25,650 nt of DNA from Abditibacteriaceae bacterium (GTDB lineage Bacteria > Armatimonadota > Abditibacteriia > Abditibacteriales > Abditibacteriaceae), in contig JANPJS010000211.1 in NCBI GenBank assembly GCA_031425655.1, forward strand, positions 1-25,650, written 5' to 3'. Position numbers and translations under genes: made by a program. The notes beneath the pieces are model-generated. The model worked only from the letters and a program-made list of their open reading frames with translations. It ran no database searches and was not told the origin of the DNA. Every line of letters starts with the position of its first letter. The first letter of the stretch is position 1. Positions 8,836 to 16,122 of this stretch are shown here, piece after piece.

Positions 8836-9055
8836 TCCGCCTCCTGAATTTGGCCAGACGGCCCCAGACAAGTCAAATACTACAAAATGAAGCGAAAAAG
8901 CAACAGGCTGCACCAACGTCTTGATCTGAGACAGGCCCAAAAAAATCGAGGATTTTCACGAGAAGCCTATTCGAGAAACGATTCTCGAATGCAACGGCGA
9001 TTTAGCGAGAAGCCGACCCTCGGCAATCTCAAACAGAAAGAACTGCGCGCAAGCA

Positions 9056-9168
9056 CCCCAACGACCAAGCTCAGCCACCACCGGAAGCCAAAGCGAGGAA
9101 TAAAGGAGCGAAGCGCAGGGCGGGGCACCCTCTGGGTCGAGGCGGTCGAGTGCAGCGCCTTGTTCTGC
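9056..9168 (-). repeat. attC site (distal, divergent, 113 bp)
   Basis: Minus strand GCAGAAC-AAGGCGCTGCACTCGACCGCC...GGTGGTGGCTGAGCTTGGTC-GTTGGGG. Confidence 0.85.
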
Positions 9169-9183
9169 CGGTATTGGTCGCTT

Positions 9184-9447
9184 TCACGCAGCGGCCAGTT
9201 GCTCACGGATTAGTTGGGTAGCTAAATCGCTCGTTGTTACGCCTTGCTGACGTGCTTTATCACGCAACGCTTGAGCCACACTCATATCAATCTCGACCTC
9301 GTAATACCGATTGCGACGTTCGGCATTCACTTCAACGGTCTGAAATGCATCAGGATAATCCATCGTATCGTGTGCATCCCAAAACTCGCCAGCTTCTTCC
9401 AAACTGTTGAAAGTGTCAGGGAGGGGGTCAATGTGCTTTTCGTTCAT
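9184..9447 (-). CDS. Antitoxin, CopG/BrnA-like (ribbon-helix-helix C terminus)
   Basis: 87 aa; F.SLEEAGEFWDAHD..DY motif and C-terminal ALRDKARQQGVTTSDL; AGGAG RBS; downstream of BrnT-like gene. Confidence 0.85.
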   Translation of the reverse strand: MNEKHIDPLPDTFNSLEEAGEFWDAHDTMDYPDAFQTVEVNAERRNRYYEVEIDMSVAQALRDKARQQGVTTSDLATQLIREQLAAA

Positions 9448-9721
9448 TGTAATATCTCCTTTCAGCTTAGGTCATGTCTCGTGCTGAAATGGGCAAGGCC
9501 GCAGACCCGTGTTTGCGGATGAAGAAAACAATCAAGTATCTACCGCCATCAATTTGGCCGTAAGCCGCGTAAACGTCTTCGCCTTCAACTTGGCCGTGCT
9601 CGACACGCCGGAAGTGCGATCTACTAAACAGAACTTCTTCAACTTCCTCAACCGAGACGCCATGCTTGACCGCAAGTTTCTCCACGAATTTTTCCTTCCA
9701 GATAACATCGTAGACTTCCAA
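9428..9721 (-). pseudogene. BrnT-family (DUF497-like) toxin with premature TAA at 9467-9469
   Basis: AAGGAG plus TTG 9721; KHGVSVEEVEEV, G....GRYLIVFF, PISARDMT then TAA then AERRYYNERKAH-TGA(9428) in the same frame. Confidence 0.8.
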
Positions 9722-9800
9722 AACTGTCTCCTTGCGGTTCTGATCATAGCAAGAAGTATACAATTTAAACGTAATAATTACAGCAACGCCGCGCGCTGCG

Positions 9801-9894
9801 CCCTAACGACCAAGCTCACCCGCCGCCGAAAGCGCAGCTACCGAGGAACGAGGGAGCGAAGCTGTAGGCGGTCGGGTGCAGCGCCTTGTTATCC
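9801..9894 (-). repeat. attC site (94 bp)
   Basis: GGATAAC-AAGGCGCTGCACCCGACCGCC...GGCGGCGGGTGAGCTTGGTC-GTTAGGG. Confidence 0.92.
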
Positions 9895-9900
9895 CGCTTG

Positions 9901-10473
9901 TTAATGCGTAATAATGTCTTCCTGTGGGAATTTACAATAACCTACCAATCGCCAAACCTGCATGGAGAACAGTAGAGCCTTGTATCGCTGAATGTGTATA
10001 TCGTGCAATAAATTGCGAAAATGTGCCAACTCTTTTTCTGAAAGCTGGCTGGCGTCCAACTCTAACCATTCAACTTCATCGTAGAATATGGTGCCGTGAG
10101 CAGGAAAAATGAAATAAGTATCGCAAACACCCTTCGCAAGATTCGGCTGCCAAGATGTTACGTTAGAACTTTCAATAAATTTGATACGAAATTGTATTGG
10201 AAGATGACGCAGTAATGAAATTCCCTTCTTCCATTGCTCGTCACTCGTTACTCGCAGCGCCTCACTTTTGTGAAGAATGACCGTCACTTCCTGCAAATAA
10301 CGGTGTTCCATCGCTGCTTCAAATTCAGCTTGTTCGCGCTCTGTTCGTTGCGGAATAGGAAGTATTTCATTGATCTTTTTCAAAAACTCACGGGATTCTT
10401 CCTGTTTCTGCCTCGATGAACTTGGATATATCATCCAAATTAGTTTGACCAAGAAGTGAGAGAGAGAAATCAT
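9901..10473 (-). CDS. Cassette-encoded hypothetical protein
   Basis: 190 aa ORF filling the cassette; stop 6 nt before attC. Confidence 0.75.
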   Translation of the reverse strand: MISLSHFLVKLIWMIYPSSSRQKQEESREFLKKINEILPIPQRTEREQAEFEAAMEHRYLQEVTVILHKSEALRVTSDEQWKKGISLLRHLPIQFRIKFIESSNVTSWQPNLAKGVCDTYFIFPAHGTIFYDEVEWLELDASQLSEKELAHFRNLLHDIHIQRYKALLFSMQVWRLVGYCKFPQEDIITH

Positions 10474-10522
10474 ACAAATAGTATGATAAAAGTTTGGCGG
10501 GCAATCAAGTTTCGCGCGAGCG

Positions 10523-10613
10523 GGCTAACGACCAAGCTCACCCGCCGCCGGAAGCGTAGCGAGGAGGAACGACGAGCGGACTGTAGGCGGTCGGGTGCAG
10601 CGCCTTGTTGTGC
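10523..10613 (-). repeat. attC site (91 bp)
   Basis: GCACAAC...GTTAGCC with the conserved arms. Confidence 0.92.
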
Positions 10614-10667
10614 CATTGTTAATGCCTACAAATTGTGTTTTGCAGGCAATTGACGAGAGCGAAGTTC

Positions 10668-10967
10668 TTATTTTGAGACAAACAAAAACATAACTTGATT
10701 CAGGTTGATCCACCCCTCCTCGAAGCCGCCCCAATCCTTGTCGGGAAATGTCACCTGCACCCATGCACCACGAACACCGCCATCTTTATGGCGCTCTATT
10801 TTGAAACTGGGCTTATCGGTGGTGTCTCCAGGGTGTGCAACCCCTGTGATGTAATAGACGGTATATTCCACGCCTTTTTCTAGTGGTGGAAGCAAAGATT
10901 CTGCCGACTCACTGCCACCTGGCGCGTTTACAACTTCGACCTTGATAGGTTCTGCAATTTGAATCAT
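10668..10967 (-). CDS. Cassette-encoded hypothetical protein (beta-rich C terminus)
   Basis: 99 aa; AAGGAG RBS; second gene of a two-gene cassette. Confidence 0.75.
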   Translation of the reverse strand: MIQIAEPIKVEVVNAPGGSESAESLLPPLEKGVEYTVYYITGVAHPGDTTDKPSFKIERHKDGGVRGAWVQVTFPDKDWGGFEEGWINLNQVMFLFVSK

Positions 10968-10987
10968 GGTGTGATTCTCCTTTTAGA

Positions 10988-11024
10988 ATCGAGCAGAGGT
11001 CTATGCGAGCAGCCTCTGCTCGAT
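10988..11024. other. Perfect 12-bp stem-loop between the two genes of the cassette
   Basis: ATCGAGCAGAGG (10988-10999) / CCTCTGCTCGAT (11013-11024). Confidence 0.75.
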
Positions 11025-11038
11025 CATCCGTTCTGTGT

Positions 11039-11158
11039 TCAACAGTCCCTGTTACTACAGGCATGAGCAACATCTGATGTTCCTGTTGAACTGGCAACAA
11101 AGTGAACGCCTGCGGCGACGGCCAACGCCATAACCGCGATGACAAACAGCTTTTTCAT
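11039..11158 (-). CDS. 39-aa secreted peptide precursor MKKLFVIAVMALAVAAGVHFVASSTGTSDVAHACSNRDC
   Basis: Read by hand (below ORF-track cutoff); AAGGAGG RBS, promoter upstream, signal-peptide pattern. Confidence 0.8.
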   Translation of the reverse strand: MKKLFVIAVMALAVAAGVHFVASSTGTSDVAHACSNRDC

Positions 11159-11186
11159 ATTCCCCTCCTTGTTCTAAATTGTTTCG

Positions 11187-11215
11187 ATTATAGCACTCAA
11201 AAAAGCTGCGCGCAA
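11187..11215 (-). promoter_or_regulatory. Cassette-internal sigma70 promoter TTGCGC-N17-TATAAT with extended -10 TG
   Basis: -35 at 11215-11210, -10 at 11192-11187 preceded by TGC. Confidence 0.75.
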
Positions 11216-11217
11216 TG

Positions 11218-11321
11218 GCACAACGACCAAGCTCACCCGCCGCCGGAAGCGCAGAGACCGAAGCGAGGAACGAGCGAAGGGAACGAAGCTGTAGGCGGTC
11301 GGGTGCAGCGCCTTGTTGGGC
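11218..11321 (-). repeat. attC site (104 bp)
   Basis: GCCCAAC...GTTGTGC. Confidence 0.93.
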
Positions 11322-11357
11322 TGCTGTTGGTGACGAGCGTTGATAACTGCATGTGGA

Positions 11358-11594
11358 TTATTCACCCTCTTCTTGCTTCCACTTTTTGTAATTGTATGTT
11401 GCTTGGGCTACGCCGACAACAACCGTGAAGAAGAATATCCACAAATAGGATATGAAGCTGTGAGCTGTAGGTATTTGATGAAGTAAAAGAAGAAGAGGCG
11501 AGAACGCCAAGACCCATAATGTGCGAATAAACTTACGTCTGTAAGATAACGCGTAATAGGCAACACAGAAGCCTTTGTCAACTCCATTTTTCAT
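11358..11594 (-). CDS. Cassette-encoded small membrane protein (2 TM, LSYRRKFIRTLW motif)
   Basis: 78 aa from ATG 11594 with AAGGAGAAGGGG upstream; two hydrophobic segments. Confidence 0.8.
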   Translation of the reverse strand: MKNGVDKGFCVAYYALSYRRKFIRTLWVLAFSPLLLLLHQIPTAHSFISYLWIFFFTVVVGVAQATYNYKKWKQEEGE

Positions 11595-11642
11595 AATTCC
11601 CCTTCTCCTTGAGTATCGCACACCACAACGCCGCGCGCAGCG

Positions 11643-11746
11643 GCCCAACGACTAAGCTCACCCGCCGCCGGAAGCGCAGAGACCGAAGCGAGGCACGAGC
11701 GCAGGGAACGAAGCTGTAGGCGGTCGGGTGCAGCGCCTTGTTAGGC
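11643..11746 (-). repeat. attC site (104 bp)
   Basis: GCCTAAC...GTTGGGC; nearly identical to 11218-11321. Confidence 0.93.
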
Positions 11747-11768
11747 CATTGTTGAGGAGTGATGTTCG

Positions 11769-12572
11769 TCACTTCCCGGACGGGGCATTAAATGCGCCCT
11801 TCCAAGTGTTGGTGTAGTCACCACTACAATCGGAAATATACTGCTTTAGATCGTCGTTGCCGAAGGTGTTGTGGAGAAGGATAAGAACCTCAATTGCCAG
11901 AAAATGAGATGTGGCAAGAGATTCTTTAACTTTTTCTTCGCTGAATCCCTGTGCGTTACCGAAAACGAGCCTTTGGCCGTTCTCCGCTTTGGATTGCGAG
12001 AAGACGTGTATCATCGAAGGGTGCGCGATCTCAAGAGGTCTATAATAGGCCGAAACCAGGTATTTGCCCATATTGACATCTTTGGCTCTTTCTACAAAGT
12101 TGGTATCTGTCCAATCGTGCTTAGGCGCCGCAATTTTGCCGTCAGCGCCCCTATATGGATTTAGCGCATCTTCTATCGCTTGCTTTTGCGTTGCGTCTAA
12201 AGTTTTGCCGTTCAAGTTTTCTATTTGCCCCTGAACCTTTTTGATAAACAGAAGCATATATCTCTTAAAGTCTGCAGCCTTTTCGGGATGAGCCTGAATA
12301 TAACTTGCATTTACTAATCCCTCAAACATTGCCCTTACAAGTGGCATGGAACCGTCGCCGCGACCTTGCGAACAGAGTATGACAATATCGTGAAATCTAT
12401 CCACGCAAAGTTTGGCCAATACAAGCACATAATGGTCTGATTCGCTCGTGACTTTTGGCACGTCAAAAGCTTTAGAATATGCCTCCATTAACTTTGGTAG
12501 GCATTCTGAAAAACTGGCATATTGATTGTTGAACTGCTCAAGATTCTGCGACAGATAATCTAAATCATTCAT
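11769..12572 (-). CDS. Cassette-encoded DUF5677-like helical protein
   Basis: 267 aa from ATG 12572; LVRAMFEGLVNASYI and YYRPLEIAHPS resemble the R..FE...Y and Y......H motifs of DUF5677 (recalled, not searched). Confidence 0.65.
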   Translation of the reverse strand: MNDLDYLSQNLEQFNNQYASFSECLPKLMEAYSKAFDVPKVTSESDHYVLVLAKLCVDRFHDIVILCSQGRGDGSMPLVRAMFEGLVNASYIQAHPEKAADFKRYMLLFIKKVQGQIENLNGKTLDATQKQAIEDALNPYRGADGKIAAPKHDWTDTNFVERAKDVNMGKYLVSAYYRPLEIAHPSMIHVFSQSKAENGQRLVFGNAQGFSEEKVKESLATSHFLAIEVLILLHNTFGNDDLKQYISDCSGDYTNTWKGAFNAPSGK

Positions 12573-12643
12573 AATTGTCCACTCTTGGTTCTTCAATAAT
12601 ATAGCAGATTCTTGCTGCGGCAACCATGTAGCTGGGCGCGATG

Positions 12644-12729
12644 GCCTAACGACCAAGCTCACCCGCCGCCGAAAGCGAAGTGAGGAACGAACGAAGCTAT
12701 AGGCGGTCGGGTGCAGCGCCTTGTTCTGC
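12644..12729 (-). repeat. attC site (86 bp)
   Basis: GCAGAAC...GTTAGGC. Confidence 0.92.
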
Positions 12730-12751
12730 CGGTGTTGGTGGGCCTTGCTCG

Positions 12752-13783
12752 TCACCATTTCGTCTTGGCCTTCTCAACACGGAACCATTGGACGTGTCCG
12801 CAGTTATCGCAGACAAGCATACGCCAGTCAGAACTAGTGAGGGCTTTGAATCCAACGAAATAGTAAAAGTCTTCATGGCTCGTTTTATTGATGTTATCTC
12901 CTGCCTTAACAGTCAATTGATAACTCCCTTGCCCACAATATAGACAAGGCTGGGGGACTTTAGAGCCAACCATATTATATTGACCCTTTAATAACTCGGC
13001 CATAGCTTTGAACGCGGTTAGAACCTCTTTCGCGTCCTGAAAACGCTTTTCGGGTTCCCGAACTACCATCCGGTCAAGGAGAAGATTTACACGCTCAAAT
13101 CTTCCATTCTTGTGTAGCCCTACCAAGTCAAAATGAGGCTGTCTAAAATCCTCGCGGCTCAAAACCTTTCCCCCACTCAACAAATAATAGAGCAGCTTCC
13201 CTAACGAATAAACATCAGCAGAAGGGAATATGTCATGAACTCCGCCATGCTCCAGTTCAGGAGCCATAAAAATGCGAGGCCCTACAATCTCACTTGTCTG
13301 GGTGAGACGGGCATCTTCCGATGAATACGCGATGCCAAAATCAGCTACGACTGCTGGCCCGCGCGCTTCTTTCAAAAGAATGTTTTGTGGCTTTATATCC
13401 CGATGAACGAAACCTTTAAAATGTGCTGCGGCAAGACCTACGCAAACATCTTCAAAGATTTGCAGAGCAAAGTTTAAATCTGAACTCCACACTTCTTTTT
13501 GTTTATCCAAGTTACCGCCAACGCATAGTTCGTAAACAACAAATGGAGGATTTGCATTTACATCATGCTCGACGGGACGGATAACGTTAGGATGTGCGAG
13601 CGTTTCGGAAATTTCAATTTCACGTCGAAAACGTTCGATAGCCTGCTCATCGCTTCGATTCGTAGTTTTGAGAGCATAATGTTGCGGATTGCCGTTGGCA
13701 CAAACGACTTCATATGCAGTTCCTTGACCGCCACCACCTAGTCGTCCTACTTCTTCCCAACGTCCGTTTCCAAATTTCATCAT
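12752..13783 (-). CDS. Cassette-encoded Hanks-type Ser/Thr kinase with C-terminal zinc ribbon
   Basis: GGGGQG loop, ALK, HRDIKPQN, DFG, APE, DVYSLG; CLYC...CDNC at C terminus; no TM segment. Confidence 0.93.
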   Translation of the reverse strand: MMKFGNGRWEEVGRLGGGGQGTAYEVVCANGNPQHYALKTTNRSDEQAIERFRREIEISETLAHPNVIRPVEHDVNANPPFVVYELCVGGNLDKQKEVWSSDLNFALQIFEDVCVGLAAAHFKGFVHRDIKPQNILLKEARGPAVVADFGIAYSSEDARLTQTSEIVGPRIFMAPELEHGGVHDIFPSADVYSLGKLLYYLLSGGKVLSREDFRQPHFDLVGLHKNGRFERVNLLLDRMVVREPEKRFQDAKEVLTAFKAMAELLKGQYNMVGSKVPQPCLYCGQGSYQLTVKAGDNINKTSHEDFYYFVGFKALTSSDWRMLVCDNCGHVQWFRVEKAKTKW

Positions 13784-13855
13784 AGAGTTACCAGTGTTGC
13801 CGCGTTCTGTAATAGATTACAAAAATCAGGCTTTGTATTCAAGCTGCGCGCACCG

Positions 13856-13951
13856 GCAGAACGATAAAGCTCACCCGCACCCCGGCGGGGAAGCTAATTA
13901 CTCTGATTTTAGCCGGGCGCCGGGGTGTCGGGGTGCAGCGCCTTGTTGGGC
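13856..13951 (-). repeat. attC site (96 bp, different internal stem)
   Basis: GCCCAAC-AAGGCGCTGCACCCC...GGGTGAGCTTTATC-GTTCTGC. Confidence 0.9.
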
Positions 13952-13958
13952 AGCATTG

Positions 13959-14054
13959 TTAGCGGTGTGTAACGTCGAACACCCATCTGCCCAGAACAAC
14001 GCCGATTCCGGCAAACAAAATAGCTTTTGTGAGTTCAGTCAGAATGTATTCCAT
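13959..14054 (-). CDS. 31-aa single-TM microprotein MEYILTELTKAILFAGIGVVLGRWVFDVTHR
   Basis: Read by hand; AGGAG RBS; fills the 132-bp space between two attC sites. Confidence 0.75.
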   Translation of the reverse strand: MEYILTELTKAILFAGIGVVLGRWVFDVTHR

Positions 14055-14083
14055 TTGTCTCCTGCCACATTATTCGCAATGCG

Positions 14084-14175
14084 GCCCAACGACCAAGCTC
14101 ACCCGCCCGCGTAAGCGTAGCGAGGAGGCACGACGAGCGAAGCTGTAGCGGGTCGGGTGCAGCGTTTTGTTGTGT
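14084..14175 (-). repeat. attC site (92 bp)
   Basis: ACACAAC...GTTGGGC. Confidence 0.92.
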
Positions 14176-14815
14176 TGCAATGAGACAACATTTCGCGCCC
14201 GATGTATTCCGTAAACGCTGGCGGAACAGCTTGACTAAGCTCGTCTGGACTCATCCAATTTATCCCCATTGCCGCCGCGCCCGCCGCGCCTGATTTGCCG
14301 ACGTGCGAACACCAGCCCGACTCACTCGGTTTAGCGCGGTCATTCAGCATACGCCCTGAGCCGATAACGTGTTCATGTTTTTGGTGTTGCGGAACCATAA
14401 CCAAAAAATTGGCTTCAAAAAGCCGGTGTCGGTAAACCCGTAACCCAAACTGAGCACCACACAAACGAAATGCGCCGCTCATATCCTGCCACGCATCCTC
14501 TACGTTTTCAATCACGAACGGTAGGCCGGTTGCCTGCAATGCCGCCCGCGTCGGGCCGATGAGTAGAGGATAAATTTTGCCTTTGAGCCACGGTAGGTGG
14601 CGCATACGGCTATAACCCTGGCAAGGCGGCGAAGCGTGAATAGCATCAAATTCATGCCCGTGTTTCGCAACGTATTCAAGCGCATCGCCCTGAACAAACT
14701 GGAACGGATAGCGCGGCTGCTGAACACAATCAACGCCGACAATTTCATCGAAGCCGGCGCGATGGTAGCCCATCGCGCTACCTCCGGCACCAGAAAATAA
14801 GTCTAAGAGTTTCAT
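14099..14815 (-). CDS. Cassette-encoded DNA (cytosine-5) methyltransferase, short phage-like type
   Basis: Motif I LDLFSGAGG, IV ASPPCQ, VI IENV, VIII RHRLF, X SQAVPP; ORF reads into the attC. Confidence 0.9.
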   Translation of the reverse strand: MKLLDLFSGAGGSAMGYHRAGFDEIVGVDCVQQPRYPFQFVQGDALEYVAKHGHEFDAIHASPPCQGYSRMRHLPWLKGKIYPLLIGPTRAALQATGLPFVIENVEDAWQDMSGAFRLCGAQFGLRVYRHRLFEANFLVMVPQHQKHEHVIGSGRMLNDRAKPSESGWCSHVGKSGAAGAAAMGINWMSPDELSQAVPPAFTEYIGREMLSHCNTTKRCTRPATASLVVPPRYAYAGG

Positions 14816-14831
14816 TTCAGTAAGGTTTGCA

Positions 14832-14933
14832 ACACAACGACTAAACTCAACCGCCCAAAACAGCGCAATTTAGTGACAGTTTACAGCCAAATTAGCGAGG
14901 CTGTTTTGGGTCGGTTGCAGTGCCTTGTTGGGG
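14832..14933 (-). repeat. attC site (102 bp, divergent with compensatory changes)
   Basis: CCCCAAC-AAGGCACTGCAACCGACCCAAAACAGC...GCTGTTTTGGGCGGTTGAGTTTAGTC-GTTGTGT. Confidence 0.9.
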
Positions 14934-15134
14934 CGCTTGTTTAGAACCTGTCGGCACGATTTCTTCAATTCCGCGCCGCTTTGCCAGTGCATTCAAATAA
15001 AATTCCACTTCGCCAAACCGAGGTTCGGGAATGCCAAGCGCCTCGTGGTTGTTCGACAGGAACGTAACCGCTTCGGCTTTAGCAAACATGATTTTGTTGT
15101 GGTGTTCAATGATTTTTTGCAAAAGTTCTTCCAT
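14892..15134 (-). CDS. Cassette-encoded hypothetical protein
   Basis: 80 aa from ATG 15134 with AGGAGG RBS; stop lies inside the attC loop. Confidence 0.7.
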   Translation of the reverse strand: MEELLQKIIEHHNKIMFAKAEAVTFLSNNHEALGIPEPRFGEVEFYLNALAKRRGIEEIVPTGSKQAPQQGTATDPKQPR

Positions 15135-15169
15135 GAAACCTCCTGCCGCCGCAACGTAACGCGCGAGCG

Positions 15170-15269
15170 GCCCAACGACTAAGCTCACCCGCCGCCGGAA
15201 GCCGGAGCGGAGCCGAGGAACGAGGCGAAGCGCAGGCTGTAGGCGGTCGGGTGCAGCGCCTTGTTCGGC
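15170..15269 (-). repeat. attC site (100 bp, first cassette)
   Basis: GCCGAAC...GTTGGGC. Confidence 0.92.
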
Positions 15270-15284
15270 TGGCGTTAGTGAGTT

Positions 15285-15899
15285 CTATAACAGTTTCTCT
15301 AACTTTCGTGTGATCCAAGCATTGAAGCCAACCAGTTCTGATGCCAGATTAATAACGTGTGCGCTCAAAACGCAAAATCTGTCTTGAGCAAAGGCAAAAA
15401 CCAAAGGACTGCTTTTCCAGTTAACGAAATCTTTTCGTTTGTCTTTGTCCAAGTGCATAATGTCGCCATAAATAAATCTTTCGAGAAAATCCAAAACGCT
15501 TGGTTCCTGACCATTAATTTTTAGCGGCTCAATTCGCATACTGGTGTAAGCGTTTGCTGGGCCACTGAGAATTTTCTCGACATCTTCTCGATGACTTTCC
15601 AAAGTTTTTAAGGAAGTCTCATCAATGGGTAACTGGGCGTAAACAAGGTGCATTTGCCGAAAAGAGATTCGGTCGTTCCGTGATATGAGAAGGCGGATGC
15701 TCGGTGCCCAAGCGCGAATTGATTCGTCGCTTGGGCCGCGACGTTTGACCATCCCTTGTTTTGTGTCGAACTCAAAAGAGATGTCAATTCCGCTATTATC
15801 AAAAACAGACTTCGCAAAGCTCGATTCGCTCAGTTCGGTGAACTTCTCATCGAACAACGCCAGTAGTTCGATTGTTTCCTCAATTTGCTGCTTATCCAT
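15285..15899 (-). CDS. Hypothetical protein of first cassette
   Basis: 204 aa ORF filling the cassette; no family recognised with confidence. Confidence 0.8.
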   Translation of the reverse strand: MDKQQIEETIELLALFDEKFTELSESSFAKSVFDNSGIDISFEFDTKQGMVKRRGPSDESIRAWAPSIRLLISRNDRISFRQMHLVYAQLPIDETSLKTLESHREDVEKILSGPANAYTSMRIEPLKINGQEPSVLDFLERFIYGDIMHLDKDKRKDFVNWKSSPLVFAFAQDRFCVLSAHVINLASELVGFNAWITRKLEKLL

Positions 15900-15952
15900 G
15901 CTTTATATTCTGGTATGAAAGTGTGGCAGATGCAACCAAGCTGCGCGCGCCA

Positions 15953-16000
15953 GCCGAACTCTGAATTATGCCGCAAATCCACCAGTATTTGCGGCATAAT
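15953..16000 (-). other. attI-like recombination site with overlapping 14-bp inverted repeat
   Basis: Minus strand GCATAAT-TCAGA-GTTCGGC (L box, 5 bp, R box); ATTATGCCGCAAAT (15965-15978) / ATTTGCGGCATAAT (15987-16000). Confidence 0.65.
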
Positions 16001-16093
16001 CATGCTTTAATCCGAAGAAACCGCAACGCGAGAATATTTAACGTCTTCTCTGTGTTACAGCGCGCGATGCATTCAGGCGACACCGTATGAGCT

Positions 16094-16122
16094 ATCTTAC
16101 CCAGCAAACTCATTTAGCACAA
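16094..16122 (-). promoter_or_regulatory. Candidate Pc-like promoter TTGTGC-N17-TAAGAT facing the array
   Basis: -35 at 16122-16117, -10 at 16099-16094. Confidence 0.4.

Follow-up and report, generated by a model that had tools for sequence, protein, structure and literature searches.

Integron models assume that gene cassettes are promoterless and are read from a promoter of the platform, with position setting expression. As a rule, cassettes are said to lack promoters (PMC11551772, PMC5371416), and the promoters that cassettes do carry are known as diverse or occasional (PMC2945992, PMC11014356, PMC8618304); in Vibrio DAT722, one sigma-70-type promoter bridging an attC junction has been shown (PMC2945992, PMC11014356). 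For the attC recombination site, Bouvier 2009 (PMC2727003) reports that self-pairing reaches 9 to 11 nt for most cassettes, citing Rowe-Magnus 2003 for the stem, and gives 9 to 13 bp for the binding arms of tyrosine recombinases. We compared with these systems a 25,650-nt stretch of DNA from an Abditibacteriaceae bacterium (GCA_031425655.1), called the window, which is the entire contig C211 of a 6.0-Mb draft genome and holds an array of ten attC sites at 9060 to 15265. The bottom strand of these sites lies on the plus strand, and therefore the cassettes are read on the minus strand, as are all features below unless noted. We consider it probable from the sequence that the 12-nt complementary ends of these cassettes are the general R stem of attC, likely the arm of one integrase, and that the GCGCGC motif flanking them is the upstream half of a sigma-70 promoter carried by the cassette.

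Cassette ends match over 12 nt in the window and in other integrons

Nine of the ten window cassettes have ends that are complementary over 11 to 14 nt. Arm positions 4 to 12 gave 77/90 matches, where permutation gave 47.5 on average (maximum 75 in 200,000), and positions 8 to 12 gave 42/50 against 24.0 when starts and ends were permuted (p=1e-5). All nine end pairs listed in an earlier note on this DNA were recovered with the same positions and counts. The start arm of cassette 1 (15948 to 15959) matches the end arm at 15263 to 15274 at 12/12. The attC sites that follow are at 15174 to 15265 (start arm from 15176 against the end arm at 14927, 10/11), 14836 to 14929 (14838 against 14169, 12/12), 14088 to 14171 (14090 against 13945, 13/14), 13860 to 13947 (13862 against 12723, 12/12), 12648 to 12725 (12650 against 11740, 11/12), 11647 to 11742 (11649 against 11315, 11/12), 11222 to 11317 (11224 against 10607, 12/12), and 10527 to 10609 (10529 against 9888, 11/13). 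The tenth cassette, which the note had omitted, begins at the attC at 9805 to 9890; its start arm from 9807 and the end arm at 9162 agree at only 3/9 positions. The last attC, of 105 nt, is at 9060 to 9164, followed at 9030 to 9062 by a cassette start with the leader motif described below, for which no attC was found downstream (a truncated terminal cassette).

The bottom strands of these sites fold as attC sites do, with an L box, an unpaired spacer, and bulged bases, and the AAC/GTT crossover with R''/R' complementarity specific to each cassette is present in nine of the ten. In all window sites, C takes the place of the usual G as first bulged base of the bottom strand. The attC at 11222 to 11317 has two bases bulged in its L stem, T and C of the bottom strand, separated by 6 bp. 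Long-stem cassettes of 15 to 25 bp pair well past 13 bp, and no such pairing was found here. The earlier note had taken the matched ends for a code belonging to each cassette alone, which is nearly so: there are 38 distinct arms among 40 starts in this genome and 111 among 136 in the family.

The same matching occurs throughout the family. At positions 8 to 12, 27 cassettes on other contigs of this genome gave 110/135 matches against 74.5 permuted, 68 cassettes of seven family genomes (this one included) gave 257/340 against 187.1, and 45 metagenome cassettes, from sites picked by the attC arm alone with the leader disregarded, gave 190/225 against 123.1. Two stem registers exist, with the G at position 12 or at 13, and both ends agree on the register in 36/42 cassettes. 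A small excess of matches is left at position 13 in Abditibacteriaceae, and it comes from the 13-nt register.

Other integrons have it too. At positions 8 to 12 we counted 216/310 matches against 97.4 permuted in 62 Vibrio cassettes, a count diluted by two loci with mis-set half-sites, and 179/255 against 90.5 in 51 Xanthomonas cassettes. Repeat-based attC detection gave usable cassettes from 5/13 Vibrio and 4/7 Xanthomonas stretches. The corresponding counts were 133/265 against 100.5 for 53 cassettes of 12 loci from other phyla and 232/380 against 163.2 for 76 cassettes of 19 IMG/VR loci, and six distinct class 1 end pairs match at 9 to 12 of 12 positions. At least 11 of 12 positions are matched in 37/62 Vibrio, 23/51 Xanthomonas, and 38/68 Abditibacteriaceae cassettes, and positions 13 to 17 are at background in Vibrio, Xanthomonas, and both mixed sets. 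Position 12 is matched more often in Abditibacteriaceae (0.75) than in Vibrio (0.48) or Xanthomonas (0.43). Thus, the matching 12-nt ends are real, but they are ordinary for integrons and already known. The earlier note had read them as a novel site longer than the standard one and had proposed to judge this against other attC families; the extension proved to be routine there, being present in Bouvier 2009, Vibrio, Xanthomonas, class 1, and 31 other loci.

By analogy, the 12-nt stem is likely to be the double-stranded arm bound by one integrase monomer, because the arms of tyrosine recombinases span 9 to 13 bp. For the same reason, selection would keep the 11 to 12 bp outside the G|TT crossover paired. 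The drop at position 13 shared by unrelated attC families offers a measurable definition of the R arm, and the arm so defined exceeds the 7-bp box used in folding analyses (PMC5371416).

Among the other loci, L083 (Planctomycetota), L143, L158, L163, and L197 represent attC families with conserved sequence outside the stem, and in L083 most cassette starts and ends mismatch each other.

A family-specific leader likely carries a promoter

Just inside the cassette start, Abditibacteriaceae have a fixed flank, GCGCGC(A/G)GCTT. At least five of the six GCGCGC positions are present after 94/136 starts in the family, and a second GTT follows 110/136 ends; exact GCGCGC was found in 1/129 cassette starts of other lineages. 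The exact leader pattern occurs in 9/11 Abditibacteriaceae genomes, and it is kept in a genus with a different attC sequence (G024). Judged by its distribution, the leader flank is confined to this family, apart from single hits in 3/110 other sampled genomes of the phylum. For the window, the earlier note had described both flanks as fixed: the second GTT does stand at 8/10 ends, but GCGCGC is exact at just 5/10 starts.

The leader, of about 35 to 50 nt, would supply a -35 box in one of several registers and a -10 box, so that the cassette gene would be expressed from it with no need for a platform promoter. TATAAT and TTG are the consensus words for the two boxes, and the Shine-Dalgarno words that we used are likewise consensus forms. 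When leaders were aligned, TATAAT-like hexamers appeared downstream of the motif. A strict -10 box at positions 29 to 56 was found in 45/130 family leaders, against 14.6 after shuffling (maximum 26) and 15/130 on the reverse strand. This excess was absent from Vibrio (13/65 against 13.7), Xanthomonas (1/51 against 2.4), and the other cassettes (2/143 against 4.7). The metagenome leaders gave 26/74 against 9.3 with the motif and 10/70 against 7.2 without it. To remove duplicates, we clustered 281 leaders, of which 169 have the motif, into 249 (154 with the motif and 95 without). The box was then present in 66/154 leaders with the motif, against 19.0 shuffled (maximum 30), and in 11/95 without it, against 9.4.

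The spacing of these boxes also points to a promoter. They peak at offsets 21 and 23 from the motif (23 and 21 of 169 leaders; shuffles gave 5, at most 12), and with offset 21, (T/C)TGCGC would be the -35 box at a 17-nt spacer and would share positions 10 to 12 with the stem. The TT that this box needs before GCGCGC is coupled to the spacing: it is present in 12/23 leaders with 17-nt spacing against 22/146 others (p=2e-4; p=0.01 per data set), and in 11/22 against 22/132 after clustering (p=0.0012). In another register the -35 box would be a TTG further in, found at a spacer of 17 nt in 27/211 leaders against 3 to 14 elsewhere. An extended -10 TG at -15/-14 occurs in 50/211, three times the 7.4% background. 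The TTG at 17 nt and the TG are each enriched as a class and are not in every leader.

A -10 box 6 to 8 nt before the ATG is the layout of a leaderless mRNA. This arrangement precedes the first long-frame ATG in 45/164 cassettes against 13.1 shuffled; the comparison sets gave 3/23, 0/13, and 2/44, and host genes 5.2%. It is found in only 1/44 of the leaders that have a Shine-Dalgarno word. These cassettes may thus often yield leaderless mRNAs. Upstream of host tRNA genes, the combination TTGCGC-17-TA(T/A)A(A/T)T is present in 2/66 regions.

When scored against host upstream regions, five of the ten window cassettes reach the top quartile and a sixth falls just short of it; three have no leader signal. 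The best predicted promoter, at 11187 to 11215, pairs TTGCGC (11215 to 11210), which overlaps start-arm positions 10 to 12, with an extended -10 tgcTATAAT (11192 to 11187) at 17 nt. The predicted promoter at 11612 to 11640 has CTGCGC, again overlapping the outer end of the start arm, 17 nt, and tgcGATACT. Two leaders would give leaderless transcripts. That of cassette 1 (15907 to 15948) has the GCGCGC motif, TTGCAT (15935 to 15930), 17 nt, and CAGAAT (15912 to 15907), followed after 7 nt by the ATG at 15899; the predicted promoter at 10480 to 10508 has TTGATT, 17 nt, CATACT, and after 6 nt the ATG at 10473. The candidate promoter in the leader of the protein-kinase cassette (13814 to 13851) combines the GCGCGC motif with TTGAAT, 17 nt, and TAATCT, and the one ahead of the DUF5677 gene (12596 to 12623) has TTGCCG, 16 nt, and TATTAT.

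Several observations weigh against the promoter and integrase-arm interpretation. A strict -10 box is present in only 43% of motif leaders, and a loose one in 79% against 55% shuffled. The reverse strand also scores in the metagenome (-10-like hexamers in 19/74 against 26/74 forward) and by matrix score (19/93 against 32/93), although hexamers in the genome set gave only the 15/130 above. The offset-23 class lacks the TT (0/21), and its -35 box is not evident. A generic promoter scan of the array found 10 sites against 7.3 expected, which is not above chance, and the host model itself has a weak -35 signal (TTG at spacer 17 in 20/342). For the stem, the reading of 12 nt as an integrase arm takes its length from the general tyrosine-recombinase range rather than from a footprint. 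Finally, GCGCGC(A/G)GC is conserved beyond the needs of a promoter spacer, which leaves room for an operator or a relic of a cassette template.

On that alternative, the leader would be a protein-binding operator or template relic, and the -10 boxes would be native promoters of captured genes trimmed to similar lengths. It would explain why the motif is conserved more than the -10 region and is partly palindromic, why arrays with different attC sequences share it, and why -10 boxes occur at several offsets (21, 23, 29 to 32, and 36 to 37). However, the motif and the -10 boxes are tied together by the fixed peaks at 21 and 23, by the coupling of TT to the 17-nt spacing, and by the absence of a -10 excess where the motif is missing, and we regard this alternative as rather unlikely. 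As a likely built-in promoter common to a bacterial family, the fixed 5' flank is new and testable.

The second GTT, at the 3' end, is by its sequence a mark of the family, and searches for its function gave none. As a decoy pairing with the spacer it left folding unaffected (70/199 sites, p=0.2 to 0.7) and covaried weakly (p=0.085). As a stop-codon site it fails, with stops scattered from 9 to >50 nt upstream, and an antisense promoter at the 3' end was found in 11/270 cases against 18.0 shuffled.

The R stem is predicted to fold in the circle, and the flanks stay outside it

The R stem would be whole once a cassette is excised as a circle, and interrupted while the cassette sits in the array. 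For the 46 matched cassettes of 69, the predicted pairing of the AAC/GTT triplet is 0.90 as circles and 0.27 within arrays; for all 69 the values are 0.68 and 0.22. This bears out the earlier claim of a paired site longer than 7 bp that is well formed only in the circle. The asymmetry arises because a cassette has matched ends, and it is true of any such cassette. Contigs of the likely source run gave repeat-type joints only, with no excised circles.

The earlier note had gone further: the functional site would be longer than standard and would favour integration over excision. On this view, the fixed flanks would be recombination signals with that bias. The better folding of the circle and the frequent matching of position 12 speak for this. 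However, the stem and its boundary are alike in all families tested, and the flanks neither pair (probability 0.07 at position 14) nor covary (110 against 106.1 in 33 register-matched cassettes, p=0.25), so that they do not extend the stem. Predicted folding was also unchanged when either flank was shuffled. We therefore consider a role of the flanks as recombination signals improbable. Shuffling the leader also changed nothing in folding when it was treated as a competitor of the L stem (45/69 cassettes). It is hardly credible that earlier recombination left the leader behind as a ghost L'-spacer-G, a half-site of attI or attC now in decay: GCGCGCGGCTTGGTCG resembles the L'-spacer arm of attC and (T/C)ATAAT is also found in attI-like heads, but the listed leaders have ATG, not GTT, after the hexamer, and there is no competing fold in the 45/69 cassettes tested.

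The window array is a decayed platform by its sequence

The array head (15957 to 16026, crossover G|TT at 15959) is homologous to the attI site that adjoins the only intact integron integrase gene of the genome, on contig C103 (TIGR02249, 428 bits against a cut-off of 265, without stops), and this homology makes it a putative attI. It contains an inverted repeat. On the plus strand, positions 16048 to 16116 hold the 5' end of an intI gene, the rest of which is missing: 23 codons corresponding to residues 10 to 32 of the intact IntI at 70% identity (tblastn, E=0.013; blastn, 70% over 133 nt, E=2e-12). Because of this remnant, the array is, by its sequence, a decayed copy of an integron platform, and the remnant rules out attG insertion as its origin. 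Further sites of the same attC family lie on >20 other contigs of the genome, and self-promoting cassettes would suit a genome whose cassettes are scattered over many arrays without an integrase.

Array heads on contigs C100, C131, C193, C314, C24, C54, C243, C16, and others share GCGG-N2-TAAT-N4/5-GTT. The hexamer in it, 5 nt ahead of the crossover, looks like a -10 box, and therefore attI may overlap the platform promoter.

The cassette from 14838 carries a C5 DNA methylase-like gene from 14815 and lacks the leader motif. That from 13862 carries the protein-kinase gene (13783 to 12752), and the sole frame of the 146-bp cassette at 13945 to 14090 has 32 codons. Genes for a BrnT-family toxin and a CopG-type antitoxin (9184 to 9763) occupy the mismatched last cassette (9162 to 9807), which one contig from the likely source run spans without differences. 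This cassette is predicted to have no recombinogenic fold even as a circle and may be unable to leave its place. At C143:130, C54:39134, and C283, attC is interrupted by an insertion element at the same spacer base next to R'', and the loose ends at window position 9160 were grouped with it. Elsewhere, a cassette start in which a AGTACTCTGGCCGCTG block is conserved recurs in L297, L305, L369, and L381 and may mark a family of gene-less or RNA cassettes.

Comparison with known systems

Where cassettes are taken to be promoterless, the sequence signal of these leaders points instead to promoters. A tentative extension, which we hold to be possible but short of probable, is that Abditibacteriaceae use a standard 5' module when building cassettes. 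In it, the integrase-binding arm would be joined to a functional promoter whose -35 box overlaps the stem, so that cassettes would express themselves wherever they land. Since a transcript does not include the promoter DNA upstream of it, such cassettes would not be simple reverse-transcribed mRNAs, and the module would be added from a template. The origin of cassettes is an open question. If the extension is true, it constrains that origin and makes Abditibacteriaceae a direct handle on how cassettes are made; stereotyped cassette promoters would also decouple expression from position and explain the usefulness of arrays scattered far from the integrase. Our literature search, limited to openly accessible papers, brought up no account of integrons in Abditibacteriaceae or of a promoter leader stereotyped in this way.

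The Abditibacteriaceae sites resemble the class 1 and Vibrio attC in their R''-L''...L'-R' bottom-strand hairpin, two bulged bases, and AAC/GTT crossover (PMC2727003). They are also alike in self-pairing past the 7-nt box, over the 9 to 11 nt published for those sites (PMC2727003) and the 12 nt that we measured in all groups. They differ in having C as the first bulged base, in matching position 12 more strictly, and in carrying fixed family flanks, which the Vibrio and Xanthomonas consensus lines lack.

The many small arrays away from the integrase gene recall CALINs (attC clusters without an integron-integrase), SALINs (lone attC sites without one), and attG insertion, as treated by Loot et al. 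(bioRxiv 10.1101/2022.09.11.507474). There, cassettes inserted at attG are expressed near a resident promoter, whereas Abditibacteriaceae cassettes would bring their own. The window array is unlike such an insertion because of its attI-like head and intI remnant.

The cassette promoters of Vibrio superintegrons (Michael and Labbate 2010, PMC2945992; Blanco et al. 2024, PMC11014356) likewise give expression in the array independent of the platform promoter Pc, which is here predicted. Those reported there are of diverse kinds, or are found in cassettes that lack a gene or carry a toxin-antitoxin pair. In contrast, most coding cassettes of Abditibacteriaceae (169/281 leaders) are preceded by a single stereotyped leader whose distance from the crossover is fixed, and unlike the Vibrio promoters, this leader overlaps the R arm and often predicts a leaderless mRNA.

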